Shown: one piece after another, positions 5,001 through 50,038 of the stretch
How the letters are laid out: every line of letters begins with the position of its first letter
Position numbering within the stretch: position 1 is the stretch's first letter
Virus record (IMG/VR): IMGVR_UViG_3300042563_003046
Location: 1 to 60,646 of that record
DNA from: a virus
Taxonomy: Duplodnaviria; Caudoviricetes
Length of the DNA: 60,646 nucleotides
Strand: one strand, 5' to 3'
Position numbers and translations under genes: made by a program
The notes under the pieces: model-generated
Databases searched by the model: none
What the model saw: only the letters and a program-made list of their open reading frames with translations
What the model was told of the DNA's origin: nothing

Positions 5001-8000
5001 AGCGTTTAACTGGGGTGCTCATATCACCACGGAAGATGTTAAGCCATCCTTTCTGCGCTTTGTATGCCCCGTATTCAAACATGGGCATCTCGAGGAGTTC
5101 TACAACTGCTGAGAAGTCGATGTTCGAAAGATCGGAAGATGCGCTAGAGCTCTGCCCAAAACTCGTAAAGAGTTTAAATGGAACGCCCGCCTCGAAAGCG
5201 CGATCATTGTGTTCGTCTTTGATCTCTTGCAATTCCTCTGGTGTAATATTCTCATCTTTAGTAGCCGCTCGATATGACTTCATAATCACATCAATATCTT
5301 CGATCCTAGCTGTTCTGACCGCTGGAGAAAACATCCGAGTAACATAATTTTTTAGGTCTTTACTACCATTTTGTGTATCAAATGTAACATCCAAACTTTG
5401 GCCATAGCGCCTCCATAGGTTAGCTGCCCTATTACCTTTTGGGTTTACATGAATCGCATGGTATAAATCTAGCTTGCCATCTGGCGTAGTCGCCGCATCT
5501 ACAAATTCATTCAGCTCGCTTGCAATTTGAATCTTAGATTGTTCTATGAAGTTAACTGAATGCTCATTAAGTTTCCTTTTTAGGTCGTTAGATAAACGCT
5601 GTCCTTGAGCGCTATTCAGGATTTTGTCCTGTAACCAACTAATCTGATCTTCTATGTCTATTTGAGCTCTTCTGATTTTTCTATCTAGCGCTGATCCTTT
5701 TGTGAAATCATCTAACTTGTTAGCTCGAGCCATTTGAAATCCCATAGATGGCCATGTGTAGTAACCATTCATCGACTCATTTAATTTTATACCATATTTA
5801 GATTGGTCTGTTCCTGTGGGGAATAACAATGCTACTACGTCTGATATAGACCGATCAATATTTAGGGAATCAAGATATCCAATTTTAAAAGATCTCTTAA
5901 GGAAGTTAGACCCATCGCCGCCACCCAAGGTCTCAATGCCTAACGCTTTAATGGCGCTATTGTTTGAAACAAGGGCGTTCATTAGTGTTGCAGCAAATGG
6001 AATTTTGGCCGCTTCTTGTGTAGTCCCGCCATCTCGACCCAACCAACCAACATGGATGCTGTTCTCGTTCTTAATATCTAAATCGACTGATACCACAGCT
6101 GTTTGTTTGTTAGCTACCCATGGGTTGTTATTCACCTTTTCATATGCGCTAACTTCGTATCTATCTTTACCTACTGAGACTACCTTGAATTGGAATAATC
6201 TATCTCCATACTCAATTCTCAGCGCCTTAATAGTATCTTCCAGCGCCTGTCTATCTATGTTCTCGATTACTTTAGTTTCAGTAGGATTCAACGCACTGAG
6301 GATTGCTTCTATGTCTAAGTTTGTTGACTCCATGTCGGGATCAAAACTCAGGGGTAACCCATCGACTACTAAGTCAGGGGGCGTTTCAAGATCAGTTCCC
6401 CCACCAAGGAGCGCCATTGGCGCCGTCATAGAACCATTAGCTCTGGCAGCTGCTTCTTCAGCGATAACACTATCTGGTGTATTCTCCGCGTAGTCATATC
6501 TGAATGTTACGGGGATCGGTGTGCTAGGATCCAATCCTAAGCTCTTCATTTTTTCAACGAGAATAATAGCTGCTATAATCGCTTCCGCCTTTACATTATC
6601 TATTTGCCCATCAGTAGTATAAGGCACTAGATCAAACGTAGAACTATCTGGGTCATAGGTTGATAGTAACTCTACTGCTTGAACTTCTTGCACTGGTCGG
6701 CTCGTTAATGATAATACTAGTCTATCAAATTCCTCTAGCTCGTCTACTATGGTATCATAATAAGCGTCGCCATCGTCCGCGAAATATAGATTGAGCGCCT
6801 GATCAATACTCCTGTTTAACCCGAGCGTGTTTTCTAGATCCTGTAGTGATAGCGTATATGATACTGAGAATAATTCTGGCCTATCTGGAGGGGCTGTCCA
6901 CCTTGCTGCAGGTGAACTAGGTGTGCTGCTAGCCGTAAAGTCAAGATCACCTTGGACGGGGGTAGTAGGCGCCTTATTAGTCGGTGCTACCGCAGCAGCC
7001 TCATCATCTACAATCTGGTTACCATTGATGACTCGAAGTCCTGCTTGTTGCATAAGTCCAGCAAACGTAGTTAGCGGTAATCCTGATGTCGCCAGTGCTG
7101 CCATTCTATCTTGTGCTTCGTATAATGCATCTGTCTCATCGAGGATGTTATAGTTTAAGATGCGGTTATATTCTGCGATTGCTTCAGCTGGAGAATTTGT
7201 ATCCAGCGCTCTGTAAGCATTCGTTTTTGCAAAACCCATGTTGATGGCTTGCATCTCTTGCATCATGGCAAAGACAGCAGCATCCATAGCGCCAGAACCC
7301 ATACCGAGTTTCTTACGATTGAGATAGCTGTTGAGCGCCCCACCGATGTATCTCTTTAATATGCGCAGCAGAGAGGGCTTGCTCGTCCAAAAGGCTATGT
7401 CATCCTCGGTGGTGTAACCACGAGTTACTTGTTGTAAGCGCATACGCAGCTTCTCTTCTACAAGAACACGCTGCTGTTGGCGGACGACTGTAGGATCGCT
7501 AGATGCGAGTTTAGCTAAAACGTCTGCAACATTCTGCGGGTTATTAATGTGGTAGGCTCTAGCAATTTCTTCATAAGCTGAATTAGATAAGCTATCCACA
7601 ATGATATCTACCTCACCTTGTGTAAGAGACCCAAATGATGCGTGGTGACCGAGTTCTTCGTTAAGAATAGAATCAAGAATAGAACGTTGGGCTAGTGGGT
7701 CTAGCTCATACATCTGGGACATTAAGATCGCAGGATTAATCCTGATCACATCGCCCTCTGCCTCAGCAGCGCCCTCAATAGTTTCGTCTCTGATTACCCG
7801 AGTGCCCGCAGGTATACGTGTATTCAGCCATCGCATTAATTGCACGAACTGAGCTTTCTGTTTTTCTGTTGGTAGCTTTTTGCTACCTGATGCTATTGTC
7901 TCCTCTATGCTGGCCTCTGTTTTATCGCGGTCAGCTTGATCCGAAGCGGTTGTTTCAGTGTCAGCTGCTGTCGCCGCCTCTGTCGTTTCTGTAGCTACTG

Positions 8001-11000
8001 GAGCTGCTGTATCAATAGTGGGCGCAGCAGTAGAAGTAGAGAGACGAGGTGTGTTGGTGACCTCAGCCAGATCATTAGCAGCACGAGTTACATCTGATGC
8101 TACCCGCATACTAAATGGAACTGCAGTAGCACGAATCGTCGTCTTGGATAAGTCTACGATATCCTTGAGCGCTTGGGCGTAAGCTGTGTTCTCTTTAGCT
8201 GATACCTTGCGGAACAACGATACCATCGCTTCGATGATGCGCTGGAAGAAACCACGCTGTCCTTCTTGGACTGGTAGCGTCTTTATGAATTGTTGGAATG
8301 TTGGGTCGAGCAAAAAGTTTGCTACGAACTCGTCTATATTCTCGAGACCAGTTTCTAGCGATGCATTATATCCATCTTCGCCTTGCTCGGTCTTTTGTTG
8401 GGCGTATGCTTTTTGGGCGAGCTGGTAAAGACCCTCGAGTCGTAAGCGAGCTGATCGTTGTTTATCAGACAATAGCTCAAGCGGTTGTGTCATGGTATCC
8501 GATAGGAATGCATGAACATATTCTTCGAGCAATACGTTCTCAAGACCAAGGCCGTTACCCTGCTCGGTGTTTAGGAATACGCTGTGGTTACCGTCTACGT
8601 GACGCGCATACTCACCAGCGATTGGTGTTTGACTAGATCCAATAGAGAACTTAACTCGGCGGATAAACGCTGGGTCTTCGAGTAGGAGCTCTGCTACTAA
8701 TTTATGCGCTGGGTTATTGCTACTCTTAGAAATTTCAGTAAGCGCTTTGACTACTGACTCTGGATCTCCTGATGCTAAACCTAGGCGAGCAATGTCTGCA
8801 GCATTTTGCTGGCGGAAGAGTCCTTTGTTTGCATTGTTTACAACGGCACGAGAAAATCGTGTGCGGACTGCCCTATCAATTGTCTTAATAATATTAGATG
8901 CCCTTCCTTTTGTGGCCGCTTCTCCGAATGTAGGCGCTAATAAGCGCTGGACTTCAGCAATATACGCTGGGTCTTCAAGTGGGTTACCATCAATGCGACC
9001 CGCAATAGCAGATAACTTGAGCGCATTCTTTAACTGCATCCCAGCGGGAGCGCCACCCCGTTCAAGATCTTGAATAAACGAGAGCACATCAGGGCGGTTG
9101 GCGTGGTTACCTAACGACATCCAGTCACCAATTCTAGCCATCAAGTCACGCGAACTCAGACCTCTTACGTGGGCTGCCGTGCCACCATCGGGATTAGGAT
9201 ATACTGAAGTATATGCTAATTCTTCGAGGCTATCACGGAGGTCGGTATCATTATCAATGGCATCAACTGCCTCAGTAATCGTATCTTTTATAGTGAGGTG
9301 GAATGCTTGCTCTGAGATAGCAAAATTAGGATTAGCTCCACCGAGACTGATCGAAGAATTTTTCAACTGCTCAGCATCGATGTTATCGATCATGCTGTTA
9401 GCTTGGTCTTCAAAGGCCACATCAGGGTCTTGAAGGACTCCTGTTGGTCTGCTCTCATCAAGAGATACCATAGCTCGAGTGCGCTCATTTACTTTGCGAA
9501 CTATCTGTTGTTCGTAGTAGCGATCTGCTGTCCGTCTGAGGACAGTAATAAAAGAGGGCATAAACCCGCCAGTTAAGTCCTTATTGTTTATGACTCGTTC
9601 ATTGATGAACTGAAGAACAATACTTGTATTAGTAGCCGACTTGTTAGGCCGTTTGGAAAGCAGGGGTGACAGAACTTTTGCCATGCCCTCGACGTCGAGA
9701 TTTCCTTTGAGCCTTGATTGCAACGCTTTGATTGCACCATTCTGTTTCTTTGGTAAGAGAGTTACGTTGTTGCTGCCAACCTCGGGTGTCGTCAGTTTAC
9801 CACTCGACAATATATCTACGCGCAACTCGTGGAGATTGGCAAGCATTAAGAATTCTATCTTAGCCGCTGTAACTGCATTGTCTTTAAAGTCTTCATCAAG
9901 GTCTCCTCTATTGATCGCGGTTGAACTTAGGAGAGCATCAACTGCTTCAGCATTCCCAGTAAAAGCGCCAACATTATACATGAGCTCGCCCATAGTTGTG
10001 GCTAGGCCTTCTCCATAGCCCGTGCGCTGGTTTACTGACTTAGTGCCCGTTGGCATGGGTTTAGCCTCTACTCCCTCAGGATAAAAAGGTATTCTGGAAT
10101 ATGCTTCATAGAGAGAATTATCCGCACTAATATCAGTGGTTTCAGTAATACGTGTCACAGCAGACTCCATAGATTTACCATCCAAAGAAGGCTTTCTGAC
10201 ATCAACGACATAGTTATTCTTAATAACAAAACTCTTATTGATCGTATTGCGGTCAACCGAAGGTTTAATAAATACAGGGATGCCATGTGCTAACATCTCC
10301 GTTACCACAATAGGGTCGTTATTAAAAATTCCACGGTCTTGGCGGTCGAGCGGCATTTTAATTGTGCCCTTTACAGTTTCATTTTTAATTGGGTCAAAGT
10401 AAGTAGAAACCCGAGATGCATTTTGTGTATAAGCTACTTCGCCCTCGCCAATCTTAAATGCTGGATAGAAAGCGTAAACTAGACGAGCAAGATATTCTGA
10501 CTTAGACACGAGATTTTTAGCTGTCACAGTGCCATACTTAAGAGCATTACCAAAGCGAAGTGGGAATCCTTTGAGGGCTAGCTTTGAAACCGCATCTGCT
10601 TCTGCTTCTTCCTGCGGGGTAAGTTCATCACCATTGCGAAATGGCGTAGTATCAAAACTTGATAACGGCGTATCCGTTGGGAGTGCCTGAGTTATAGGGG
10701 CTGTTGTTTCCTTTTTACTTTTGCTCTTATTCTTTTTGCGTCGTTGCTTTCTCGAGGACTCATCTACATCTGCATCAGGATCAAAGCTCGCTACATGTGA
10801 AGCTGTGTTGCTCGCGGCTTCATCCGTATCAATCTCTGCAACTGCTGCTGCTTTTTGAGCGGCTGGTGATGGCTGTGAGATAATCGTGATCGGCTCTTGA
10901 GAGAAAGTTGAGCTGATAGTGGTCGAACCTATGGTGGCAACAAGTGGAACCTCTTGGTTGTTCTCTAACTGTGCTACTGCATTGCTGATAATTTGATCCG

Positions 11001-14000
11001 CCTGTTCTTGTGGGGTTTCCGAAATGCGCACAAACAACTCATTAACATCCGTGATATCAGAAGGTTGTTCCAGCGAAGGTGTTTCTGAGGGAACTACTGG
11101 CGGTGTAAAAGCAGGGGTTGCTACTGGCGCAACAGGTTTAGGTAAAGCCCGTGGGACTTTAGCGTTACCCGTTTCCTTGATGTATCCAATTTCTTTCTTG
11201 GCTTTTTCAATTTTTGCATTCGCTTTTTTACCAATTGCTTTTCTCCCAACAAGTGGGACTGATAGAGAAGTAATTAAACTTTCACGCTCAGCAATTGCCG
11301 CTTCGGCCTCTGGGGTCAGCGTGATGGGAGCTACTGGTATTACTTCAACAGGAGTGGCTTCGATAGGAGTTGTTGGCTGACTCGTATCGTATCCAAATTG
11401 CTGGCTTGCTCCAACTGGCGCCCCCTCAATAGGGGTTGTAGCCGCAGGAGTTGTATCCGCAGGAGTTGTATCCGCAGTATCTGCGGGGATTGTAGCCGCA
11501 GTATCCGCAGGAGTCGTAGCTGCAGTCACCGCAGGAGTTGTAGCCGCAGGAGTCGTAGCTGCCGTCACCGCAGGAGTTGTAGCCGCAGGAGTTGTAGCCG
11601 CAGGAGCTAGTGTAGAAATAGGCGCTCGGCGGGCACGTGCTTGCTGGGTCAGGATTCTTCCTACTGCTTGTGCCGTAATTGGGCTACCCGAATCATTTAG
11701 ACGCTGAGTGACATCTGAAATAAACTTCTGTTGTAAACTGATGCCCTCTTGTAATACAGCTGCCTGATTCTTAAATGGATTGACTTTGTTCCATGCCCCT
11801 TTTGTGAGTGTGATTCCACCACCTAAGGTAGCTCCCATGGCCGCTGCATACATCGTTTGTTTTAAGCGCTCCAAGAATGGGGTATCCTGATCACTAGCTG
11901 CATCCTCAACAAAACTGTTAAGGAGCTGATCTAGCCCTTCTTCCTGCGCTTCGTCTACGGCATCTTTTAGGAATCCAGTCTTCGAAGATTTCTCGAGCTT
12001 TTTAATAGTAGCTGATAACTGCTTAGTAACTGCTTCTTTAAATTTAGTATCACTTAAGTTTTTGACGTTGGCTAACGAGCCTAAAAGATTTTTGGATTGC
12101 TTAAATGTTAAGCCACGTAGCATTGCGTCTTCTACACCCGCTTTACCAAATGAACCAAAGGCTGCGGTAATAACGCCAGTAACCATTCCACTAGTTAGTG
12201 CAGCTCCGAGAGATCGGTCGTGGATTTGTTCGTCAGTGAGCCCTAGCTCTTGCTGTTTCTTCTTAAGCGCTAGCGAGACGCTACCATATGTGCTAGCCCC
12301 AGTGCGAGTAGCAGCTGGAATAAAGGATGCGGCAGAAGTCCCAATACGTTGTGCTACGAGGCTGTTGTATCCCTTGATGGCTGCAAGCGCTCCTTCTCCT
12401 GTTACTTTTTTTACAGACTCTTTGATTAGCCCATCAGCAAGGATTCTCTTCGCAGCTGTCTCAGCTGTCTCTTTGGCGCCGATTCTAAAAGCTCCTTTTG
12501 TCAAGCCTTTCATCATGCCCTTCATGGTGAGCCGAGCTCCTTGTTTTGCTGCTAAGTATGCGACCCCACCCATTCCAGCTACGGGAGCTGTAACGGTGCT
12601 TAGCAGAGCAGTAGCGGCCATATCTACTACGAGTGGTGCTAGCGACTCCGCAATATCTTGGCCAAAGCCCATTTTCTGCCCGAACATTTCGGCAACTTCG
12701 CGGCGATCAGAATTGTCCTGTGCTATGTCTCTCAACATTTCGGCAGACCAATCAGCGCCAGCTGCCGTTAATACTCCCAAGACAGGAGATCCGAATCCAG
12801 TGAGAATGGACATTCCGAGTCCTTTAGTTCTCTCAGTAAAATTACTATAGTTTTCCTCATCTTTTAGGAAGTCGTTGAGGATCTCATGGTTCGCTTTGCC
12901 CTTAAGGCGGCCGTCAATTTTTGCCAGATTCCACTTATCCTCGCTGCCTGTGCGCTGAAATACTTTATCAGCGTTATTGTAATTATCTGTAAGGGCTACT
13001 AAGCGCTCGCCTTCAAGTTTTTTTCTATCGTTACCTGTGATGTCTGGCCGAGCTTCCAGTGTTTTGTTGAACAAATTTTCGTTCATCAGCGCTGCTGGGT
13101 GCATAACAGTTGTGCCCAAAGAGGTCTTGCGAATATTTTTTTGATATTCACCCTCTTCATCATGTAGCACAAATTTGCTATTTTGCGATGCATTAGAAAT
13201 AGCGACCTCTTTAATCAGTCTATCTACATCCTCTGGATTTAGCGACCCTTTTTCAAACGCCCCAGAATCCTCAAGTTTCTTAGTGATCGTGTCCCTAAAG
13301 TATGATATGTCGCGATCAACTTGGCTATCGATCTCTTTCTTAGCATTATAGTCGGCATCTACTTTTTTAGATGCTTCATCAGAAAATAGTCCTATTACTT
13401 TGGATACTCCAAGTCCTAGTGCTTCGCCAAATTCATTTGCTAAATATGATCCTTTATCCCCACCATCAAACTCTTGAAAGGCTGCTCGGTTTCCGAGTGC
13501 CTCTATGGTTGACTTAACTGACTTATCAGTTTTTGCCAGAGTAGACAGGGACTCATACATTTCAGAGATCTGATTAATTTTGTATCGAGCTACAGTTGAG
13601 CCTTCTGCAATTGCCAATTCACCTTGTGCTACATAAGCATCTGCTAAAGAAACACCTGCTGCGCGCGAGGCTTTGAGTGCCTCATTAAGGCTCATCGACG
13701 TAGCGAGGTCGCTAGTCTTGAACATGCGGTCTCCGTTGTCATCTTCGAAGACAGCAAAAGGAATCTTGTTCGTATCGATTGCTCGTGTCTTAGCCTCGTT
13801 GTATCTATTGAGGATAATATTATTAGCCGCTTCTTTGAGCTCGGCATGTCTGGCGAGGGACTCCTCTGTAAAGCCATTAGGGTTACCTGCTTTGATAGCT
13901 TTGTCCATCGAGCTAAATTTGCTCAATGCATCGCGATCTGGATCATCATAATTTAAGTTGGAAAGTGTCAGTGCAAACTTATCCTCGAAGGATGGCTCGA

Positions 14001-14313
14001 CAATATTTTTCTTGATGATGTCCTTAAATCCATCGTAGTCGCCGTCTTTTAATAGGTCTGCTGTTACTAACGAACCATAGAGGCCTTGCTGAATATTATT
14101 CTCGATCTCTACATCCATCGGCAGGTTAGAATCTAACCTTGTTTGACGCATGTAATCTGCATAATCAACTCGAAGTTGCACAGGATCTCGGTCTTCTTTA
14201 TCCAAAGACCAATCACCGAACGGTATGTATTGTGCCTCTGTAGGAGTTGTAGATTCAGTGGATCCAAGCAGACTTGTTGGAACGATAGTAGTAGTGGTGG
14301 TTGGGTCAGTCAT
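2077..14313 (-). CDS. Giant (4078 aa) polyvalent / internal virion (ejection) protein
   Basis: Very long ORF. It carries an Ala/Gly-rich hydrophobic N-terminal region, PAATT repeats, two zincin-like motifs (LLEEYVH, LNEELGH), an NGYYTWP motif and a helical C-terminal region. Confidence 0.75.
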   Translation of the reverse strand: MTDPTTTTTIVPTSLLGSTESTTPTEAQYIPFGDWSLDKEDRDPVQLRVDYADYMRQTRLDSNLPMDVEIENNIQQGLYGSLVTADLLKDGDYDGFKDIIKKNIVEPSFEDKFALTLSNLNYDDPDRDALSKFSSMDKAIKAGNPNGFTEESLARHAELKEAANNIILNRYNEAKTRAIDTNKIPFAVFEDDNGDRMFKTSDLATSMSLNEALKASRAAGVSLADAYVAQGELAIAEGSTVARYKINQISEMYESLSTLAKTDKSVKSTIEALGNRAAFQEFDGGDKGSYLANEFGEALGLGVSKVIGLFSDEASKKVDADYNAKKEIDSQVDRDISYFRDTITKKLEDSGAFEKGSLNPEDVDRLIKEVAISNASQNSKFVLHDEEGEYQKNIRKTSLGTTVMHPAALMNENLFNKTLEARPDITGNDRKKLEGERLVALTDNYNNADKVFQRTGSEDKWNLAKIDGRLKGKANHEILNDFLKDEENYSNFTERTKGLGMSILTGFGSPVLGVLTAAGADWSAEMLRDIAQDNSDRREVAEMFGQKMGFGQDIAESLAPLVVDMAATALLSTVTAPVAGMGGVAYLAAKQGARLTMKGMMKGLTKGAFRIGAKETAETAAKRILADGLIKESVKKVTGEGALAAIKGYNSLVAQRIGTSAASFIPAATRTGASTYGSVSLALKKKQQELGLTDEQIHDRSLGAALTSGMVTGVITAAFGSFGKAGVEDAMLRGLTFKQSKNLLGSLANVKNLSDTKFKEAVTKQLSATIKKLEKSSKTGFLKDAVDEAQEEGLDQLLNSFVEDAASDQDTPFLERLKQTMYAAAMGATLGGGITLTKGAWNKVNPFKNQAAVLQEGISLQQKFISDVTQRLNDSGSPITAQAVGRILTQQARARRAPISTLAPAATTPAATTPAVTAATTPAATTPAVTAATTPADTAATIPADTADTTPADTTPAATTPIEGAPVGASQQFGYDTSQPTTPIEATPVEVIPVAPITLTPEAEAAIAERESLITSLSVPLVGRKAIGKKANAKIEKAKKEIGYIKETGNAKVPRALPKPVAPVATPAFTPPVVPSETPSLEQPSDITDVNELFVRISETPQEQADQIISNAVAQLENNQEVPLVATIGSTTISSTFSQEPITIISQPSPAAQKAAAVAEIDTDEAASNTASHVASFDPDADVDESSRKQRRKKNKSKSKKETTAPITQALPTDTPLSSFDTTPFRNGDELTPQEEAEADAVSKLALKGFPLRFGNALKYGTVTAKNLVSKSEYLARLVYAFYPAFKIGEGEVAYTQNASRVSTYFDPIKNETVKGTIKMPLDRQDRGIFNNDPIVVTEMLAHGIPVFIKPSVDRNTINKSFVIKNNYVVDVRKPSLDGKSMESAVTRITETTDISADNSLYEAYSRIPFYPEGVEAKPMPTGTKSVNQRTGYGEGLATTMGELMYNVGAFTGNAEAVDALLSSTAINRGDLDEDFKDNAVTAAKIEFLMLANLHELRVDILSSGKLTTPEVGSNNVTLLPKKQNGAIKALQSRLKGNLDVEGMAKVLSPLLSKRPNKSATNTSIVLQFINERVINNKDLTGGFMPSFITVLRRTADRYYEQQIVRKVNERTRAMVSLDESRPTGVLQDPDVAFEDQANSMIDNIDAEQLKNSSISLGGANPNFAISEQAFHLTIKDTITEAVDAIDNDTDLRDSLEELAYTSVYPNPDGGTAAHVRGLSSRDLMARIGDWMSLGNHANRPDVLSFIQDLERGGAPAGMQLKNALKLSAIAGRIDGNPLEDPAYIAEVQRLLAPTFGEAATKGRASNIIKTIDRAVRTRFSRAVVNNANKGLFRQQNAADIARLGLASGDPESVVKALTEISKSSNNPAHKLVAELLLEDPAFIRRVKFSIGSSQTPIAGEYARHVDGNHSVFLNTEQGNGLGLENVLLEEYVHAFLSDTMTQPLELLSDKQRSARLRLEGLYQLAQKAYAQQKTEQGEDGYNASLETGLENIDEFVANFLLDPTFQQFIKTLPVQEGQRGFFQRIIEAMVSLFRKVSAKENTAYAQALKDIVDLSKTTIRATAVPFSMRVASDVTRAANDLAEVTNTPRLSTSTAAPTIDTAAPVATETTEAATAADTETTASDQADRDKTEASIEETIASGSKKLPTEKQKAQFVQLMRWLNTRIPAGTRVIRDETIEGAAEAEGDVIRINPAILMSQMYELDPLAQRSILDSILNEELGHHASFGSLTQGEVDIIVDSLSNSAYEEIARAYHINNPQNVADVLAKLASSDPTVVRQQQRVLVEEKLRMRLQQVTRGYTTEDDIAFWTSKPSLLRILKRYIGGALNSYLNRKKLGMGSGAMDAAVFAMMQEMQAINMGFAKTNAYRALDTNSPAEAIAEYNRILNYNILDETDALYEAQDRMAALATSGLPLTTFAGLMQQAGLRVINGNQIVDDEAAAVAPTNKAPTTPVQGDLDFTASSTPSSPAARWTAPPDRPELFSVSYTLSLQDLENTLGLNRSIDQALNLYFADDGDAYYDTIVDELEEFDRLVLSLTSRPVQEVQAVELLSTYDPDSSTFDLVPYTTDGQIDNVKAEAIIAAIILVEKMKSLGLDPSTPIPVTFRYDYAENTPDSVIAEEAAARANGSMTAPMALLGGGTDLETPPDLVVDGLPLSFDPDMESTNLDIEAILSALNPTETKVIENIDRQALEDTIKALRIEYGDRLFQFKVVSVGKDRYEVSAYEKVNNNPWVANKQTAVVSVDLDIKNENSIHVGWLGRDGGTTQEAAKIPFAATLMNALVSNNSAIKALGIETLGGGDGSNFLKRSFKIGYLDSLNIDRSISDVVALLFPTGTDQSKYGIKLNESMNGYYTWPSMGFQMARANKLDDFTKGSALDRKIRRAQIDIEDQISWLQDKILNSAQGQRLSNDLKRKLNEHSVNFIEQSKIQIASELNEFVDAATTPDGKLDLYHAIHVNPKGNRAANLWRRYGQSLDVTFDTQNGSKDLKNYVTRMFSPAVRTARIEDIDVIMKSYRAATKDENITPEELQEIKDEHNDRAFEAGVPFKLFTSFGQSSSASSDLSNIDFSAVVELLEMPMFEYGAYKAQKGWLNIFRGDMSTPVKRLFEQREEFKRAASQLVISYKEKMDKLVINTYGDKASADWDLLAKAQGYIDGNLVSDAAYEAMEKAYNAELERIANDQTLTPADQRTQRAAARQQRDQDIEAAESSAIAQVTIERDAALNQLQSLNSDLAVHIVSMRTQLIQPIQQKLIAAGIDPNIGLKIDKTGGIYITRAYAMFNDPTYAERVRTEPHYQAVRDAAMSFFTTQLFNMSFSEAKAQGLSDIDATNAANLAIQKANQKAPAGSSYGSQAMEAFLSSYDQKQSPSPQTTKGLREIKNNLKRRKDLPKELRDLLGEYGAENGTDLIVRTFSSVAMVAAQQTFLNNLAKTGAKQGFMVDAKTYAANPSQYPDYVPMRSGGSTKNDPLAHMYAPKDIVDSLGAALEARVTQQSTTAEAAVSAISLVARNLTGKAMVAKTLGSVGFYLRNALGNLLFFAPAQGFIRADKIAIRTGVFSYMQLKDPNRINAAMAELTGLGIIGDEIQPAMLKALLSGAASKDSMLASLDKFTAELPVVGTVRKGMEWLENKASTLSGAIDAAYKIEYFQHELDTLIEARANDPSGKLTGMSDYDLKRMAAVKVKMTAQSASQAPDFVKALNNSTFGLMFAPFIRFKAEVPRIVFNTYKLGWEEVNSGNPVLVARGMKRLGGMTSMLGMVSAALPAVISALFGGVRDEEDEALRKSMPEYLRGHSFLFYRDSKNALISLDLTYVNPFSLLLDPFMRALPYIKNGEVGNAASALTKGLFFSTYLDDQILAGNLADVIENKDSTTNQNIYIEGVDGVFEAMTKQAAYVFKKTYTPRIVQDVMNSVNAMDGNYVGERNSPLAQLFDGMKPTKTHQIDLVAQHRRFLYDHAERFSQLKREKYAMLRKQAMSPEEIDEIYDREFKGRRSLNQELLGVVRGFESLGIKPQDQYNTMKSAGIGKEKARLLFQGIMDRPDIEKDFAEKLIENQQTDRLEQLIKVRDRYNRYIFIDEIKTK
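11432..11604 (-). repeat. Coding tandem repeat (PAATT/PADT linker)
   Basis: Repeated gccgcaggagttgta units within the giant ORF. Confidence 0.85.
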
Positions 14314-16196: not shown

Positions 16197-16302
16197 AGTG
16201 GTGCTGTAATAAATTTCGCTTACACTATTAAAAACTTTCTTTTAATTCTATTGGTGCTCTAATAAATTATTACAGCACCAATACGTCATATAGAAAGTTT
16301 TT
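16197..16302. repeat. 106-bp AT-rich element, inverted copy of 49916-50021
   Basis: Reverse-complement match with about 4 mismatches; contains three TGGTGCT(G/C)TAATAA boxes. Confidence 0.92.
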
Positions 16303-16331
16303 ATTCCCTACAAAGAGGAGCTGACCAAGAT

Positions 16332-19788: not shown

Positions 19789-20267
19789 TTATAGGTATTG
19801 ATAATGGGCTAGACGGTGGGCTGTGTGCCATCTCAACACATGACGGTAGCATCATCGCTAAAACTACTATGCCCACTCTCGTCTTTAAAAAGAAACGAGA
19901 GGTTGATCCAAAACGAATCTACAAATGGATCATGGGTCTCAATACCCCATGTGTGATCGCGATTGAAGAACCACTTAATCATGCTCGTTCATCACAGGCT
20001 ATGAGATCTATGGCTATTAGCTTTGGTAAGATTATCGGGATGTCCGAGTGCAGGGATATATCAATCAAGAGAATAGATGTGCATGACTGGCAAAAGGCTA
20101 TGCTTGGAAAAATACCTAAGGGGTTCACGAAGCAGGCAGCCCTTATTACAGCAACAAAATTAGCTCCAGATGAAGAATGGCTAGCAACCTCTCGCTGCTC
20201 GACACCACACGATGGAATGATCGACGCCTTTCTTATTGCAAAATTTTATTTGACTAAATGCAAATGA
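19785..20267 (+). CDS. RuvC-like Holliday junction resolvase
   Basis: IIGIDNGLDGG, IAIEE, WQKAM, HDGMIDAFLIA. Confidence 0.85.
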   Translation: MIIGIDNGLDGGLCAISTHDGSIIAKTTMPTLVFKKKREVDPKRIYKWIMGLNTPCVIAIEEPLNHARSSQAMRSMAISFGKIIGMSECRDISIKRIDVHDWQKAMLGKIPKGFTKQAALITATKLAPDEEWLATSRCSTPHDGMIDAFLIAKFYLTKCK

Positions 20268-20289
20268 TGAACTATGAACGGTCTCCCAC

Positions 20290-20556
20290 ATGAAAAGTCA
20301 CGTTAAAGAAATACTAATCGGCGATACGCTAGTCGAGATCAAATCTCGGACGGATGATCGTCATCCCTCTGGCTGGTCAGTCATCGCATTCTCTCCAGAG
20401 TTATCCATCCGCAGCACTAAACTACATCGATTATCTGGGCGCACCGCATTTATTAATTCGATCCTTGGATCCTGTGGCCTGAACGGTGAATCCGAACAAA
20501 AGATCGAGGTATTCCAGCGAGCGCTATCCGTCATCCTTGACGAGGCAACCTCCTAA
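20290..20556 (+). CDS. Hypothetical protein
   Basis: ORF within the replication operon. Confidence 0.55.
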   Translation: MKSHVKEILIGDTLVEIKSRTDDRHPSGWSVIAFSPELSIRSTKLHRLSGRTAFINSILGSCGLNGESEQKIEVFQRALSVILDEATS

Positions 20557-20589
20557 ATTCTCCCAAACCAAAAATGAAGACAAATAAAA

Positions 20590-21888
20590 ATGAAGACATT
20601 ATATCCAAAGCAACAAGAAGCGCACGACTTTTTTGTATCGTGCCTAACTAAGAACGTTAACACACTAGACTCATCAGATGTAGGAACAGGTAAGACAATT
20701 GTCGCCTGCCACATTGCGAAGACCTTGGGCAAACCATTCTTCGTCATGTGCCCTAAAGCGGTCATACCATCTTGGGAACGTGAAGCAGCAGCCTGTGGGC
20801 TTAAACCGCTGTTTGTCATGAACTACGAGAAACTACGAACTGGAAAAACTCCATGGCTAACAAAGCGTGGTAAGAAAATATTCAACTGGAAGTTACCAGA
20901 AGGAGCTATCGGGTTCATCGACGAGTGCCATAAAGCAGGAAACCCGTATACGCAGAATGCGCAGATGGTAATCGCTCTACACAAAGAAGATTTCCGTATT
21001 CACTTGATGTCAGCTACATCAGCTAATGATCCAACGGAGATGCGAGCAATCGGATACGCCTTAGGTTTGCATTCTCTCAATGAAGCGCAAGCGCCACTTA
21101 AAAGTTGGTATCGATGGATGATGGATTATGGCTGTGTGCAAAATACATGGGGTGCGTGGGAGCTGCGTAAGAAGAACAAGCTATCCCTTTTGCATGATCA
21201 AATTTATAACCGTAATGCGAAGAGGCTTACCGTAGCTGACTTCCCTGATTCATTTCGTAAGAATAGGATCTTTGTGGAGAACATTCAGTTTTCTAATCTC
21301 AGCAAGATTCACGCGGCATACAAGAGTCTTAATATTACACCAGAAATCATCGAGCGATACATTGAGCTAGGCACAGTAGAAGATAGCGAGCACACTCTCG
21401 TGAACCTGTTACGAGCTCGACAGTTGGCTGAGTCTTTTAAAGTAAATGATATTGCTGAAATGGTCGATGAGTTATTGTTAGAAGAGGCCAGCGTGGTTGT
21501 CTTCATGAACTTCCGTGAAACAGCAGAAGCATTAGCACTAACCCTAAGGTGCGAGAAGATCGTTGGTGGACAATCGGCAGCTGATAGACAGCGGATCATT
21601 GATGACTTCCAGTCGGATAAAACGCATGTGCTCGTTGTTAATATTGCAGCAGGTGGCACTGGCATTAGCTTGCACGATCTGAACGGTGATAGACCACGTG
21701 TATCTCTGATATGTCCTACGTTTAATGACAAGGACTACATGCAGGCACTCGGACGCATTCACCGCAACGGAGCAAAAAGTGATGCCGTGCAAAAGATTTT
21801 AGTTGCCAATGGGACGGTTGAGGAAGTAGTTATCAAATCCATCCAGAACAAGATCGCAAATCATGACATGCTCCATGGAACAAAATAA
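20590..21888 (+). CDS. Superfamily 2 (SNF2-like) helicase
   Basis: GTGKT, DECH, SAT, AGGTGISL, QALGRIHR. Confidence 0.92.
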   Translation: MKTLYPKQQEAHDFFVSCLTKNVNTLDSSDVGTGKTIVACHIAKTLGKPFFVMCPKAVIPSWEREAAACGLKPLFVMNYEKLRTGKTPWLTKRGKKIFNWKLPEGAIGFIDECHKAGNPYTQNAQMVIALHKEDFRIHLMSATSANDPTEMRAIGYALGLHSLNEAQAPLKSWYRWMMDYGCVQNTWGAWELRKKNKLSLLHDQIYNRNAKRLTVADFPDSFRKNRIFVENIQFSNLSKIHAAYKSLNITPEIIERYIELGTVEDSEHTLVNLLRARQLAESFKVNDIAEMVDELLLEEASVVVFMNFRETAEALALTLRCEKIVGGQSAADRQRIIDDFQSDKTHVLVVNIAAGGTGISLHDLNGDRPRVSLICPTFNDKDYMQALGRIHRNGAKSDAVQKILVANGTVEEVVIKSIQNKIANHDMLHGTK

Positions 21889-21892
21889 ATTT

Positions 21893-22198
21893 ATGAATAC
21901 AAAACAAACTAACCCGCTGGCAGCGGTTGCTCCAGCCACGCCTTGTTCGGCTGCTTGCCCTAAGTGTGGCAGTCTGAACATCCACCGCCATCATCGCGCC
22001 CCGAAAGAAGAGTGGTCGCGAAATATCGGGGAGAACCGCAAGAACTACGAAACGCCGTGGGTCAGCTATGTCGGATACTCCGCAAAAGCTCTCAAGGAGT
22101 GCATTACCCACCACTGCCGCTGCTGCCAGTGGAAATGGGAATCCGATTGTCTGCCGAACGATCAAAGTGAGGCACAGCCTCCAGCAACAAATCTATGA
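21893..22198 (+). CDS. Cassette A gene, zinc-ribbon protein
   Basis: CPKCGS...CRCC; stop inside attC1. Confidence 0.75.
   Translation: MNTKQTNPLAAVAPATPCSAACPKCGSLNIHRHHRAPKEEWSRNIGENRKNYETPWVSYVGYSAKALKECITHHCRCCQWKWESDCLPNDQSEAQPPATNL
21913..21951 (-). mobile_element. Truncated attC (R'' and L'' half only)
   Basis: Minus strand reads GCCGAAC AAGGC GTGGCTGGAGCAACCGC; no L'/R' arm is visible toward the helicase. Confidence 0.65.
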
Positions 22199-22250
22199 AT
22201 ACACCAAAAGACTCAACGGGAGGCTGTTGTCCTCCACCGCCTTGTTCGGC
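22153..22250 (-). mobile_element. attC site 1 (98 bp)
   Basis: Minus: GCCGAAC AAGGC GGTGGAGG ACAACAGCCTCC...GGAGGCTGTG CCTCACT TTGATC GTTCGGC. Confidence 0.9.
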
Positions 22251-22548
22251 TTCTTTGGAGGCCGTTCAATACGCCGACTACATCCTAAACCACTACTCGC
22301 GGGATAGTCACGCTGACAAGTTGTGCCTCGCCCGTGACTTGGAGCGGCACGGGTGGTCGAGTGACTTGTTCGGCGATTTGAGTGCGGATGCGAAACAAGC
22401 GGTCGCATGGCTGTTTAGTGACCATGCCAAAAAGCTCTCAGTCATCGAGGCTCGCGCCTGCATCTTGGAAGGATGGGGAAAGCGCGTGGACGACGAACTG
22501 CGAGCTTACTTTTCGCCAAACGCCAAGGTATCAGACCGCCCATCATGA
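22195..22548 (+). CDS. Cassette B gene, hypothetical protein
   Basis: ATG in the attC1 loop (ATGA overlap); stop in attC2. Confidence 0.75.
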   Translation: MNTPKDSTGGCCPPPPCSASLEAVQYADYILNHYSRDSHADKLCLARDLERHGWSSDLFGDLSADAKQAVAWLFSDHAKKLSVIEARACILEGWGKRVDDELRAYFSPNAKVSDRPS

Positions 22549-22605
22549 AAACTCCCGAATCACAACAGACGCCTTTGGGCGGTTCTGATCACCGCCTTGT
22601 TCGGC
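22515..22605 (-). mobile_element. attC site 2 (91 bp)
   Basis: Minus: GCCGAAC AAGGC GGTGATCAG AACCGCCCA...TGGGCGGT CTGATACC TTGGC GTTTGGC. Confidence 0.9.
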
Positions 22606-22850
22606 GTTGCGTGACACACCACTTCGCTTGCGACTGCCGCGAGGCACTGATGGCGGAATCCATGAAGACGCAACGACGAGTGATCGACTGGCGGGATCAG
22701 AGCGATGAGGGCTTGAGACTGCGTTGCGGAGAACTGACCACGCAGGAAATCCGCACCATCAGGGCTGTGCTGACTGCTATTCTTCCGCCGAACGCCGATG
22801 TGATGGCAGCCGCCGACAATAAAACTCCAACGAAGGAAATGACTTTATGA
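22545..22850 (+). CDS. Cassette C gene, hypothetical protein with CxxHHxACDCRE motif
   Basis: ATG in the attC2 loop; stop in attC3. Confidence 0.75.
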   Translation: MKTPESQQTPLGGSDHRLVRRCVTHHFACDCREALMAESMKTQRRVIDWRDQSDEGLRLRCGELTTQEIRTIRAVLTAILPPNADVMAAADNKTPTKEMTL

Positions 22851-22908
22851 TACCAGAAACCATTGAAGAAACCACAGATGGCGGATTGCCATGCACGCCT
22901 TGTTCTCC
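22787..22908 (-). mobile_element. attC site 3 (122 bp)
   Basis: Minus: GGAGAAC AAGGC GTGCATGGC AATCCGCC...GGCGGCT GCCATCAC ATCGGC GTTCGGC. Confidence 0.88.
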
Positions 22909-23212
22909 GTCTTTTCGGGCTGGAGATGATGTTCGCCACCTGCCATCTGGTGAAAACTGGAAGCTCGCCACGGATGAGGAAAACGGGTGGGTGTCTCCAT
23001 GCGGATGGCCGCCTACACTAGCCGAAGCGAAAGACTGTGTGTTGCAGTTCGCCGCCGACGATAATGAGAGGATGGAGATGCTGAAAACATGGGCAGCAGA
23101 GGGGCGCGGCTACGAGCATGAGCGCGACCACCGAACCCGCACCGCTCGCCACCAGATTTCTTCCGAGAACGCTGAGGTGAGGCACGGCGCTAAGGACGCT
23201 GACCTCGACTAG
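22847..23212 (+). CDS. Cassette D gene, hypothetical protein
   Basis: ATG in the attC3 loop; FRAGDDVRHLPSGENW...GWPP; TAG in the attC4 loop. Confidence 0.75.
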   Translation: MIPETIEETTDGGLPCTPCSPSFRAGDDVRHLPSGENWKLATDEENGWVSPCGWPPTLAEAKDCVLQFAADDNERMEMLKTWAAEGRGYEHERDHRTRTARHQISSENAEVRHGAKDADLD

Positions 23213-23249
23213 AAACTTTCCCGCCGTTGCCTCGACCGTCTTGTTAGCC
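23164..23249 (-). mobile_element. attC site 4 (86 bp)
   Basis: Minus: GGCTAAC AAGAC GGTCGAGGC AACGGCG...CGCCGT GCCTCACC TCAGC GTTCTCG. Confidence 0.9.
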
Positions 23250-23288
23250 GTTCGGGGTGCGTCGGAAAACCGAAACAAACACACGAAT

Positions 23289-23504
23289 ATGGACAACCTA
23301 CGAAAAAACATCGAATCAGCAATTAACGCCGCCAGTGCGGAAAACGGCAGTGACACTCCCGATTTCATCTTGGCCGAATATCTCACGGACTGTCTCACTG
23401 CATATGACAAAGCGGTGGTGGCGCGTGAAAAGTGGTATGGACGGCCAGAACTCCCAAAGCCATTTCCTTCGGCTAATAGCAAAGATCAATCACCGCAAGG
23501 TTGA
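23289..23504 (+). CDS. Cassette E gene, small conserved phage protein (ENGSDTPDFILAEYL type)
   Basis: ATG 23289 after an A/C-rich leader; stop in attC5. Confidence 0.75.
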   Translation: MDNLRKNIESAINAASAENGSDTPDFILAEYLTDCLTAYDKAVVAREKWYGRPELPKPFPSANSKDQSPQG

Positions 23505-23523
23505 TTGCATCGATCTGTTCGAT
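23471..23523 (-). mobile_element. attC site 5 (53 bp, minimal; R' reads ATT instead of GTT)
   Basis: Minus: ATCGAAC AGATC GATGCAATC AACCTTGCGGT GATTGATC TTTGCT ATTAGCC. Confidence 0.75.
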
Positions 23524-23529
23524 AAACGC

Positions 23530-23775
23530 TGACATGCCGTTTAGTATGTCACTACACTCGCGCTCATTGCATTGAGGGCATCTGAAACAGAATGAGGGGG
23601 AGCCGTACGCGGCGAACTCAATACGTCTGGATGAGCAACCTGAACAGTGGGTGCGAGTGTGGTGTGACTGAGATGGTTTAAGGTTGACGCAGATAGAGCG
23701 GGGATATGTTCTGCAACGTATCGCTGCCCGTAGATTCGTATTCTACCACCACACGACTTGCTGCCGTAAGCAGCT
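23530..23775 (+). ncRNA. Candidate structured non-coding RNA
   Basis: Intergenic; five stems, including a 19-bp stem (23551-23569 with 23645-23663) whose non-Watson-Crick pairs are all G-U on the plus strand. Confidence 0.5.
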
Positions 23776-23794
23776 ACTAACCAATAATAAAAAT

Positions 23795-24076
23795 ATGACA
23801 ACCTTAGAACAACAATTAGAAGACGCAGGATACGATGCATCCGAGCTATTATGCATGGATGGATATAACGACTGTATTGTCGGAGTTGTAAACCGCATAG
23901 GCCAACCACCAATCATATGCTATGATACTACCAAGGTTATAGCGTCATTAGTGAATGATGGTATGACCGAAGAAGAAGCTGAAGAGTATTTTAACTTTAA
24001 CCAATTAGGAGCTTGGATCGGCGAAAACACCCCTTGCTTTTTAACACCTTTAACATTAGAACAACCATTACAATGA
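23795..24076 (+). CDS. Conserved small phage protein
   Basis: DGYNDCIVGV...EEAEEYFNFNQLGAWIGENTP motif. Confidence 0.75.
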   Translation: MTTLEQQLEDAGYDASELLCMDGYNDCIVGVVNRIGQPPIICYDTTKVIASLVNDGMTEEEAEEYFNFNQLGAWIGENTPCFLTPLTLEQPLQ

Positions 24077-25197
24077 TAGACAACGTAAACCACGCAGACA
24101 GAGGACACGCAGAGTTCTCACCATCGAGCCTAAAGTATGTAGCGCAGTGCGCAGGATACCAAGGTAAAAGCGGAAATTCCGCAGCCTCAGAAATGGGCAC
24201 ACGAATCCACGAAGCCTTAGAGGTTAGAGACCCTTCTGCTTTGCACAATGAACAGGAAGTTGACATCTACAATCAGATCGTTGAAATGGAAGCTGAGTTC
24301 ATGACGAACTTTGGCACAATCACAGAAGAGCTCAATGAGATCCAAGTGAGCGTAGAATTGATTGGGACTGAAACATGGGGGACATGTGACCGTCTATTGA
24401 TCATTGGAGATGGCAGCGAAGCAGTGATGGCCGACTACAAAACTGGTATCTCAATTATTGATCCGCCAGATAAAAACTTCCAAGCAAAGGCATATACCAT
24501 TGGGGCTTTCCAAAAGTATCAAAAGTTGGAAAAGATCGTCTTCGTCTTCTATGTCCCTCAGCGCTACCAATCGTTGCACCATACGTTCTATCGGGCAGAC
24601 CTTCCTAGCCTAGTGCAGGAGCTAAGCACGATTGTTACGACAGCGGAGCGTGTTAGACCAAAATGGAACAAAGGCACGATGGATATCGATGATTGCACAC
24701 CGAGCCAATATTGCCACTTCTGCGCACATGAAGATGGCTGTCCTTCTCTAGGCGGGCTCAGCATCGCATTAGCCAAAAGAATCAACAGCACACTACCCGA
24801 CATCGATCTAACAGATCTTGAAAACACAGACCGCTTAGCCGAGCTCTACCACATCTCTAAGATCGTAGAGAACTGGGCTGCAGCAGTTAAAGAGAGAACT
24901 CTAGCCGCCCTAAAAAATGGTGAGTCGTTAGAGGGTCTCAAGCTAAGATCCATGGGTAAAACAAAATCGGTCACAGACAATATTACACTGATCGAAATTG
25001 CTAAAGAGTGCGGCGTTGAGATGGAAGATATCCTGAAAGAAGCAAATTTCCCACTCGGTAAAATGGCTAAAGTCGTAGCCTCTTTGGGTCATGGAAAAAC
25101 AAAAAAAGAAAAAGAAGAAAAATTTCTTGACGCCTGCCAAGATGCGGGTATTGTCACGTTCTCCGACGAGCGGTTCACAATCGCAAGTCTGACTTAA
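24073..25197 (+). CDS. Cas4-like PD-(D/E)XK exonuclease (DUF2800-like)
   Basis: HAEFSPSS, GTRIHE, WGTCD, DYKTG, CHFC...C cluster. Confidence 0.85.
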   Translation: MIDNVNHADRGHAEFSPSSLKYVAQCAGYQGKSGNSAASEMGTRIHEALEVRDPSALHNEQEVDIYNQIVEMEAEFMTNFGTITEELNEIQVSVELIGTETWGTCDRLLIIGDGSEAVMADYKTGISIIDPPDKNFQAKAYTIGAFQKYQKLEKIVFVFYVPQRYQSLHHTFYRADLPSLVQELSTIVTTAERVRPKWNKGTMDIDDCTPSQYCHFCAHEDGCPSLGGLSIALAKRINSTLPDIDLTDLENTDRLAELYHISKIVENWAAAVKERTLAALKNGESLEGLKLRSMGKTKSVTDNITLIEIAKECGVEMEDILKEANFPLGKMAKVVASLGHGKTKKEKEEKFLDACQDAGIVTFSDERFTIASLT

Positions 25198-25224
25198 ACC
25201 AATAACATTAAACTAATAACACAT

Positions 25225-25899
25225 ATGTCTAAAGAAGATAATACCGCTAAAGCGGACACGCAGGTTGCAGAAGTTTCTGCAAAAAACACATCACTGAGCA
25301 CCACAGTTAATGGAGCAATGCAAATCGATGCAGAAGATATTGATATTCCCCGTATCAATGTTATCCAAAAGTCGAGTCAGATTGAAGCACCTGTTGGTTC
25401 AATCGTCGTCAACAAAATGGATGTCATCGCTCTTGCTGATCAAGCGGTAGAAGTCATCGTGGCTACTGCCCAAAAAGGCTGGAGACAAGATGTCCCATAC
25501 GAAGAGGATACCGTCCCACAAATCGCATGGTCTAAAGACCGCGCCGATGCTATTGCATTGGATGGTGATTATGAGATGATTGAGTTTGCGGAGATTACCA
25601 TGCTCATCAAACAGCCAGAAGGCAATACCGACGATGACGCTTTTCCATTCCCTATTGGTAGTGGTAATTACGCTATCGGCCGCATCAACGTATCCAAGAA
25701 TGCCTATCGATCCACTTACAAATGTCTCGCTACCTTCGCGGCGTTTAACAAAGGGGTATCGCTATCTGGTCGCGTCTGGTCTCTTAAGAGTTCTAGCATG
25801 AGCAAAGGCAAATACAGTTGGTTCAGCCCATCCTTGACCATCACCAAGTCTACACCAGAACCAGAAGTTCTGGAATTCTTGGCAAACTTCGGTGCATAA
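25225..25899 (+). CDS. Putative single-stranded DNA-binding protein
   Basis: DIDIPRINVIQ...KGKYSWFSP; located between exonuclease and polymerase; upstream TTGACG-N16-TATTGT at 25127. Confidence 0.6.
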   Translation: MSKEDNTAKADTQVAEVSAKNTSLSTTVNGAMQIDAEDIDIPRINVIQKSSQIEAPVGSIVVNKMDVIALADQAVEVIVATAQKGWRQDVPYEEDTVPQIAWSKDRADAIALDGDYEMIEFAEITMLIKQPEGNTDDDAFPFPIGSGNYAIGRINVSKNAYRSTYKCLATFAAFNKGVSLSGRVWSLKSSSMSKGKYSWFSPSLTITKSTPEPEVLEFLANFGA

Positions 25900-49868: not shown

Positions 49869-50038
49869 CGATGTATTTACATCTCGTTGGTGCTGTAATA
49901 AATATATATTGAGAAAAAAACTTTCTATATGATGTATTGGTGCTGTAATAATTTATTAGAGCACCAATAGAATTAAAAGAAAGTTTTTAATAGTGTATAG
50001 GAAATTTATTACAGCACCACTTAAATGTAAATACATCG
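49869..50038. repeat. Nested palindromic AT-rich element containing the second 106-bp copy (49916-50021)
   Basis: cgatgtatttacat...atgtaaatacatcg outer arms; four TGGTGCT(G/C)TAATAA boxes. Confidence 0.9.

Follow-up and report, generated by a model that had tools for sequence, protein, structure and literature searches.

Integrons are known chiefly as gene-capture devices of bacteria, and a canonical cassette gene lies on the top strand, wholly within its cassette and upstream of its own attC site. At least two neighbouring attC sites with no integrase gene (intI) near them make up a cluster of attC sites lacking integrase (CALIN). Small accessory genes of T4-type phages are known from another arrangement, the promoter-early stem-loop (PeSL) modules, in which an early promoter and a stem-loop stand at the gene junctions. 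Phage-borne attC clusters were reported only in 2023, as rare (17 CALINs among 10,705 phage genomes), and that report describes integrase-less clusters in virulent phages, with IntI1 recombining five of six sites tested, as well as temperate phages carrying complete integrons (Table 1 in Qi et al. 2023, PMC9892861). Here we report on an IMG/VR virus record (IMGVR_UViG_3300042563_003046; Duplodnaviria, Caudoviricetes), all 60,646 bases of which were analysed and are called the window below. Its region 21881-23803 is probably an integrase-less integron cassette cluster, situated in the phage replication operon and carrying bottom-strand genes that straddle the cassette junctions. The original prediction for this stretch, made from its letters alone, had known of no description of such a system; for the general case this falls, given that integrase-less attC clusters of virulent phages are already described in PMC9892861.

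According to PMC5027507, the bottom strand of an attC site has an R' box of the form 5'-RYYYAAC-3', in which the cut separates A from C, the spacers are unpaired and 5-6 nt long, and the extrahelical bases lie on the arm opposite AAC, the one at position 16 being usually G and the final one a conserved T at position 23 or 24, with a 6-bp stem separating the pair. Single bulged bases at this fixed spacing, together with the AAC/GTT boxes, are described there as the features that IntI reads (PMC5027507). Like the published phage CALINs, as far as the available text of PMC9892861 presents them, the window combines a row of attC sites with small genes in the absence of intI; unlike them, its attC types could also be traced to integrons with intI, and a natural variant of the excision type was found. 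It lacks intI, attI, and Pc, unlike chromosomal integrons.

The attC-type sites of the window

Five complete imperfect palindromes and one half site lie within 1.65 kb of a genome without an integrase, which is the arrangement of a CALIN, whereas the intI, attI, and promoter that would stand beside the array of a complete integron are missing. Inspection of the sequence agreed with the coordinates at which the original prediction had placed these palindromes. Folded as single strands, they form an outer stem of 7-8 bp and an inner stem, which are separated by an internal loop (5-7 nt per side), and end in a large loop. The 5' arm has an unpaired spacer of 5-7 nt and the 3' arm one of 5-6 nt, and the L box is 3 bp long. 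The single bulged bases of the inner stem lie on the 3' arm of the plus strand, and the minus strand therefore reads R''-L'' (with an extra base)...L'-R', exactly the layout that had been predicted. Sites 1-4 contain the AAC and GTT of the R box and are 86-122 bp long, and site 5, with 53 bp, is just below the attC range of 57-141 bp.

All sites are given here on the plus strand. Site 1 (22153..22250) is of a type with three extrahelical bases, has R' GCCGAAC and R'' GTTCGGC, and holds in its loop an ATGA in which gene 1 stops and gene 2 starts; its layout is ambiguous in that it fits two registers. Sites 2, 3, and 4 fit the published bottom-strand attC definition exactly. Site 2 (22515..22605) has R' GCCAAAC, R'' GTTCGGC, extrahelical C and T separated by a 6-bp stem, and an ATGA in the loop; site 3 (22787..22908) has R' GCCGAAC, R'' GTTCTCC, extrahelical G and T again separated by a 6-bp stem, and a long loop with a Shine-Dalgarno-like AAGGA and an ATGA overlap; and site 4 (23164..23249) has R' CGAGAAC, R'' GTTAGCC, extrahelical G and T, and a TAG stop codon in its loop. 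Site 5 (23471..23523), of a short type of 53 nt, was parsed by hand as R' GGCTAAT, then a spacer of 6 nt and an L box of 3 bp, with a stem of 6 bp between an extra C and an extra T, and finally 2 bp and the 4-nt loop GCAA; its R'' is GTTCGAT. Upstream of them is a truncated site, site 0 (21889..21951), in which the helicase gene, with its end, occupies the position of the 5' arm. What is left of the site is the loop, where gene 1 has its start codon, and the 3' arm, whose R'' is GTTCGGC; these two parts together are 80% identical to their counterparts in a site of contig L050. Separately, a lone copy of the R''-side word (GACTTGTTCGGC, one mismatch) was seen at 22363-22374 within gene 2, with no matching hairpin.

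Detection relied on a custom script with a strict attC grammar (R box, spacers, L box, extrahelical bases, and 6-bp stem) and on a custom covariance model, R1, built from 44 sites that all come from loci other than the window. The strict grammar found three sites on the plus strand of the whole genome and none on the minus strand, compared with a mean of 0.06 and a maximum of one site in 100 dinucleotide shuffles of the genome and a mean of 0.002 sites in 500 shuffles of the insert. R1, applied to both strands as the original prediction had proposed for a covariance model, matched sites 4, 3, 2, and 1 at 72.5, 63.3, 59, and 56 bits (E 3e-16 to 6e-12), all on the plus strand with none on the minus strand, and gave 22.7 bits over 21843-21951 for site 0. 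Grammar scripts and R1 agree on the coordinates of sites 1-4, and site 5 was found by no script; the predicted attC architecture is thus borne out by the grammar scripts and by R1 at sites 1-4 and by hand at site 5. Rfam gave no match on 21500-24000 at E<=10, and to our knowledge it probably contains no attC family. A loose scan for NNNNAAC...GTTNNNN produced 105 candidates genome-wide and was dropped as non-specific.

As a control for strand, we used the integron of Vibrio phage Va_90-11-286_p16 (MK672802), which is named in PMC9892861. The first strict grammar required four paired bases past the last bulge and found no Vibrio attC site, and it was later relaxed; the version on which the counts are based fails again on the Vibrio sites, and it also misses site 5 of the window and a type-2 copy in contig L045. 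The relaxed grammar found nine sites in MK672802, all on the intI strand and opposite most cassette genes, and in the window it found sites 2 and 3, on the gene strand. In the cassette array of MK672802, R1 marked seven attC-sized places with weak scores (13-23 bits), each of them on the bottom strand; four coincide with grammar sites. Like the window, this integron has long loops and two or three extrahelical bases.

Reversed genes, cassette signature, and natural variants

The array holds five plus-strand genes. Gene 1 (21893..22198) encodes a cysteine-rich protein of 101 residues without a family match, gene 2 (22195..22548) a protein of 117 residues with 33 homologous protein clusters, gene 3 (22545..22850) a member of a widespread small-protein family (101 residues, 94 homologous clusters), gene 4 (22847..23212) a protein of 121 residues with eight homologous clusters, and gene 5 (23289..23504) a protein of 71 residues that matches phrog_18819 at 2e-12. 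Pfam, PHROGs, and NCBIfam searches of the cassette proteins returned only unnamed PHROGs, for gene 5, and no named function. The plus-strand reading of genes 2-5 is well supported by their homologues, and the coding status of gene 1 is indicated solely by its open frame and coupling. As predicted, all five genes run antisense to the canonical cassette direction, the plus strand being the bottom (recombinogenic) strand. They straddle the junctions, starting in an attC loop and ending in the attC of the next cassette, and three of the gene junctions are ATGA stop/start overlaps within attC loops. Among the alignments of the 94 gene 3 homologues, 56 end at residues 79-84, and the R' box corresponds to residues 81-83. 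The body of gene 4 (22896-23170), which starts with the spacer ahead of R'' and runs to the AAC of the following R', is kept in other arrays under other attC types.

The same organization was observed in a wider set of 30 sites (two of which come from one duplicated contig): AAC is in frame, as an Asn codon of a long upstream open reading frame (ORF), at 29 of them, an ATGA overlap is present at 16, and the last extrahelical base is T at 29. Promoter-like sites are not enriched in 20000-25500 (5 versus 7.1 expected), and none lies within sites 1-5. In these respects the phage arrays differ from chromosomal-type arrays, in which reversed genes are a minority (two in MK672802 and one in an array of a Luteolibacter genome described below), since every gene seen in the phage arrays is reversed, none has its own promoter-like site, and ATGA overlaps chain the genes within loops. 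The window is also reversed in comparison with the published phage CALIN of TJE1, whose single grammar site (1016-1075) has its bottom strand opposite the preceding gene, the usual orientation. Bottom-strand coding, the placement of start codons within attC loops, and the in-frame AAC junction are apparently new; neither bottom-strand cassettes with loop start codons nor a cassette pool shared by Verrucomicrobia and phages is mentioned in the literature found, which consisted mostly of titles and abstract openings, and absence from the literature is not proven by this.

Evidence for a fixed crossover point came from 18 adjacent pairs of sites, 15 of which are informative. In 13 of the 15, the four variable R' bases are the reverse complement of the R'' of the previous site (mostly 4/4), and among the exceptions there are two ties and no case of a better match with the site's own partner. 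Within the window, R' CGAGAAC of site 4 answers R'' GTTCTCC of site 3, and the first six bases of the site 5 box (GGCTAA-T) complement R'' GTTAGCC of site 4. Since R' follows the previous R'', the crossover must have been fixed inside the R box, which would not be the outcome of plain homology. Chromosomal integrons resemble the window here, in that attC types (such as the Vibrio repeats) are reused by many unrelated cassettes and R' is tied to its own R''. With regard to linkage of the attC interior with the left or the right gene, both flanks vary for the type-4 site; the upstream type of gene 4 is the same in five of seven full-length homologues (window, P0001-P0004, L045, and G034), with at least four downstream types, which is no more than suggestive.

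Parts of the stretch are present in 24 lake or freshwater metagenome runs, and variant joints were read from contigs of four of these runs; runs with only small shares of it were set aside, and no weight was given to stretches that contigs do not cover. In three of the four, which have three different study codes, a joint 22156>22519 with four ambiguous letters (AACG) was observed. The crossover thus falls within the R' box of site 1 and that of site 2, and exactly the gene 2 cassette is missing; one such contig, of 3060 nt, extends into the exonuclease gene. Without cassette 2, gene 1 would run as far as the tail of site 2 and its end would overlap the gene 3 start, in agreement with the frame rule. 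Loose contig ends show other upstream sequences meeting sites 1, 2, and 4 immediately before AAC, and a further context has GCCGAAC ahead of the site 5 interior (loose end at 23478). A second joint, 23148>23746, is found in all four runs and represents a 597-bp deletion at the 6-nt microhomology CCACCA, through which gene 4 loses its end and gene 5 is removed together with sites 4 and 5; this matches the fusion protein P0006. Recombination other than by IntI thus also reshapes the region, and the joint at AAC and the joint at a microhomology together imply that both integron-type and ordinary illegitimate events have shaped it. The predicted gain and loss of genes is accordingly upheld by the cassette signature and by the cassette-2 variant at AAC, but not by the array ends, the variant of the related phage L001, or the 597-bp deletion, all of which lie off the R boxes.

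The most probable mechanism is as follows. The cassettes would have been made by an integron integrase acting on the folded plus strand, with IntI binding that strand and making its cut in the left-hand R' box, where it would separate A from C in 5'-AAC-3'. A cassette on the plus strand would then consist of the C of AAC, the attC interior, R'', the gene body, and six bases of the next R'. Translation would begin at a start codon in the attC loop, read AAC as Asn, and stop in the next attC, often at an ATGA overlap, and the phage's own upstream promoter would transcribe all cassettes. With starts in the loops and AAC in frame, any order of cassettes would stay open and translationally coupled, and the frame rule may serve shuffling.

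Relatives of the array and neighbouring integrases

Searches with gene 4 and with short site words returned two viral loci (L042 and L043), 12 metagenome loci, and 14 viral loci. In the arrays gathered this way on phage-like contigs, the bottom strand is always the gene strand. The type-4 site (23164-23249) is 92-97% identical in six contexts, which share no related DNA upstream of the R' box and continue downstream into five different genes. For the copies in five metagenome contigs with unrelated flanks, identity to site 4 is 92-96%. Copies of the type-3 site that are 84-93% identical were found in L042, L043, L049, and L056, and another (82%) in a metagenome-assembled genome (MAG) beside intI. 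Site 1 and site A of L043 differ by compensatory changes in the stem, implying that the structure is under selection, and a short site related to site 5, but with AAC, follows the gene 4 homologue in L045.

The cargo of these sister arrays includes Tad2-like, C-5 DNA methylase, HD-domain, VRR-NUC, and DUF3850/ASCH proteins. For example, the cassette right after the type-4 attC of L050 (4128-4424) encodes a Tad2-like (Thoeris anti-defense 2-like) domain (PF11195 at 2.8e-21). Judging from such cargo, the roles of the cassettes may be accessory or counter-defensive. As a separate observation, an SSB protein of L048 (3617-4219) carries a gene-4-like domain as a C-terminal fusion, and in the sister contig L047 (3499-4249) this domain is a separate gene with a type-1-like leader.

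The original prediction had recognised no tyrosine recombinase in the genome, and every search agreed with it: a six-frame search with PF00589 gave no match at E<=1, a Pfam scan of 61 ORFs found no tyrosine recombinase, and tblastn of the IntI-like protein of L071 reached only E 2.8 at best. Integrases were instead found near the same sites elsewhere. A 22-mer of site 4 had one match among species genomes, in a contig of a MAG titled Luteolibacter sp., whose copy of the type-4 site is 95% identical over 82 bases. This MAG contains integron integrases at 340.8 and 327.7 bits to TIGR02249 (cut-off 265 bits) and a third at 249. The integrase with 327.7 bits lies about 1.4 kb from the type-4 site, the bottom strand of which is the intI strand, as in canonical integrons; the cassette tied to this site has a reversed ORF of 72 residues ending in ..ANV, and its neighbours are in the ordinary orientation. 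When the insert was searched against 301 genomes of the family of the Luteolibacter MAG, seven gave matches. In one of the seven, an intI (334.5 bits) is about 1 kb from a type-3 site, and 57 of 63 residues of a cassette ORF (hand count) are shared with an ORF of the phage contig L043, a cassette that is not in the window; another has a gene 4 homologue behind an attC on the same strand. We take these MAG contigs to be probably chromosomal.

An IntI-like gene is present in three of 15 viral records with a type-4 site, and its scores (259.9, 250.6, and 180.1 bits) are under the cut-off in every case. Record G006 (locus L071), of 59.6 kb, has direct terminal repeats, is rated complete, and holds seven sites, all on one strand. 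Its IntI-like gene (L071 2968-3942; 33469-34443) reaches 260.3 bits with TIGR02249, just under the cut-off, compared with about 115 for XerC and XerD. It has the same strand and direction as the seven-site array upstream of it, and an attI-side junction, GGCTAA|C, which is the complement of the last R'', lies 47 nt ahead of its start codon. G006 is thus of the same kind as the complete integrons of temperate phages, with a phage intI and an array, whereas the window has no intI. Its cassette genes read toward intI, not away from it, and in the phage-adapted form the operon would be read from the far end of the array toward the integrase side. At E 1e-5, G006 gave no match to any of 41 proteins of the window. 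These results bear on the earlier proposal that a lytic phage uses a host IntI in trans: verrucomicrobial MAGs offer a plausible source of integrase beside the same attC types, but the enzyme need not be the host's, considering the phage records that encode an IntI-like protein. An integrase supplied in trans, from the host or from a co-infecting phage, may therefore act on this genome. The lytic lifestyle itself is suggested solely by the absence of an integrase.

Genomic setting, alternatives, and implications

The record has direct terminal repeats, is rated complete, and has a GC content of 47%; blastn against GenBank phages gave no match. A plus-strand operon at about 18.9-31 kb encodes a helicase, an exonuclease, a family A DNA polymerase, and a primase-like protein. 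On its left, the array borders on the helicase gene (Helicase_C / SNF2-like; 20590..21888, plus strand), where homology to close relatives stops at about 21880. To the right are a remainder of the insert with no convincing gene (23524..23794), in which an inverted repeat is present (23550-23569 / 23645-23664), the first gene past the insert (phrog_13182; 23795..24076, plus strand), which directly follows the helicase in close relatives, and the gene for a DUF2800 / PD-(D/E)XK exonuclease identified by Pfam (24013..25197, plus strand). GC is 0.55-0.58 between helicase and exonuclease versus 0.42-0.46 on the flanks. Within the remainder, the non-coding segment 23544-23663 exceeds its surroundings in contig depth in run X3, with other sequences joined at both sides, and in run X2 its middle is swapped for 13 different letters; it may be a small mobile or structured element.

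A search with the helicase protein identified 41 related viral loci. In the 24 that hold both genes, the gap between helicase and exonuclease ranges from -29 to 4778 bases, and the two genes abut or overlap in ten. In the closest relatives (L002, L003, and L005, with about 90% helicase identity), the helicase stop runs straight into the homologue of the gene at 23795, and 21881-23803 is thus an insertion, of about 1.9 kb and higher GC, that is absent from close relatives. L004 has a different small gene at this place, and L001 is 99.8% identical up to 21913 and then continues with a different gene. Sites of the same family are also present in the related phages L006 and L043, where, however, they precede the helicase. 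The original prediction had pointed to this interval in relatives as the place where gene content should change at the R boxes; the comparison with L002, L003, and L005 shows an insertion, but its ends are unrelated to R boxes.

Several other features of the genome were noted. Two near-perfect palindromes of 75 nt (16229-16303 and 49915-49989; -16.9 and -19.9 kcal/mol), which are reverse complements of each other, sit in gaps that separate blocks of ORFs; they might serve as bidirectional terminators or as signals for packaging or replication. A second block of higher GC (52000-58000; 0.52-0.60) has genes that match GP88, mycobacteriophage L5 gp82, an AAA ATPase, and a DUF2201 VWA-like/metallopeptidase pair; no attC-grammar match was found in this block, which may be a further acquired module. 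An ORF of 4078 residues on the minus strand (2077-14313) had no Pfam match at E 0.001. A homologue of endonuclease VII (1290-1751, minus strand; PF02945 at 3e-19), a junction-resolving enzyme, could in principle process cruciform or atypical Holliday structures at attC sites.

A number of observations weigh against the integron interpretation or limit it. The attC calls depend on a home-made grammar and on R1, which is weak on Vibrio attC sites, and the R boxes match the RYYYAAC/GTTRRRY consensus only in part (e.g., GCCGAAC), site 5 having AAT in place of AAC. Folding energy does not favour the plus strand: sites 2 and 3 fold better on the minus strand, and for sites 1 and 4 the strands differ by no more than 0.6 kcal/mol. 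The genome has neither an integrase nor an attI-type junction, no integrase remnant or attI-type junction was found at the right end of the array, and the complement of R'' of site 5 is absent to the right of it. At its left end the array breaks off within an attC loop, both ends are at microhomologies and not at R boxes, and L001 diverges at a short repeated word that is not an R box; the 597-bp deletion is likewise at a microhomology. The cassette-2 variant could have formed in another array and then entered by homologous exchange of flanking cassettes, and the intI-bearing MAG contigs may belong to mobile elements or viruses.

Some of these points would be expected if the palindromes were portable homology, that is, linkers for homologous or microhomology exchange between co-infecting phages, with the attC form a relic on which no integrase acts today. 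The attC types are 84-97% identical across unrelated contigs with different flanks, the array ends, the L001 variant, and the 597-bp deletion are at microhomologies, the genome has no integrase, and the gene 4 body stands under a type-1 attC in L045 and a type-3 attC here, which a crossover at AAC alone cannot yield. The PeSL modules of T4-type phages, as they are generally described, offer a likeness in that structured junctions are repeated around small accessory genes in a variable region. However, the agreement of R' with the previous R'' in 13 of the 15 informative pairs needs one fixed crossover place, and the joint of the cassette-2 variant falls in AACG of both R' boxes though their flanks share little homology. 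At least five sequence types retain the geometry of extrahelical bases, for which plain homology has no need, and integron integrases adjoin the same attC types. Promoter-like sites are not enriched either, and the junctions show attC geometry and a fixed crossover in place of the promoter signal of PeSL modules. We therefore regard portable homology without a present-day integrase as a rather improbable account, though the most probable of the alternatives.

It is considerably less probable that the hairpins act mainly in the transcript, by tuning the coupling of stop and start codons or as processing sites or weak terminators. This would agree with the presence of the structures on the sense strand and of ATGA in the loop at 16 of 30 sites, with two G-T pairs of the short site in L045 that pair only on this strand, and with the view, noted in PMC9892861, that attC sites contain weak terminators. 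But attC sites of the same grammar in Luteolibacter flank ordinary genes on the other strand, so that the structured strand is not the sense strand there, the fixed-spacing bulges and AAC/GTT boxes are what IntI reads (PMC5027507), Rfam gave no match, and the cassette signature and the precise joint represent DNA events. A secondary role of the attC hairpins in RNA might nevertheless exist. Chance palindromes in a GC-rich insert, which the 105 candidates of the loose scan could bring to mind, can practically be dismissed: the strict grammar gave three sites versus 0.06 in shuffles and on one strand only, R1 matches reach E 3e-16, the same sites recur in dozens of contigs, and the shuffles, the cassette signature, and the covariance model already refute this explanation.

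Beyond the assignment of the region as an integrase-less cassette cluster, we lean, by a modest degree, towards the broader proposal of a phage-adapted form of integron, with bottom-strand cassettes, starts in loops, in-frame AAC ends, and coupling in any order. Its cassettes, including counter-defence genes (Tad2-like and DNA methylases), would belong to a pool shared by chromosomal integrons of freshwater Verrucomicrobia and many unrelated phages and would be shuffled by a host or phage IntI in trans. Members of one attC family occur in at least 14 phage records of IMG/VR, in a dozen metagenome contigs, and in several genomes of Verrucomicrobia, which suggests a two-way trade in cassettes between lake bacteria and their phages, and the "backwards" cassettes of chromosomal arrays may be phage cassettes. 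The array also provides a natural system for studying whether integrase acts in trans and whether attC loops can carry translation signals. The reversed, frame-standardised design would explain how promoterless cassettes are expressed in a phage operon and would let phages readily swap accessory and counter-defence genes.

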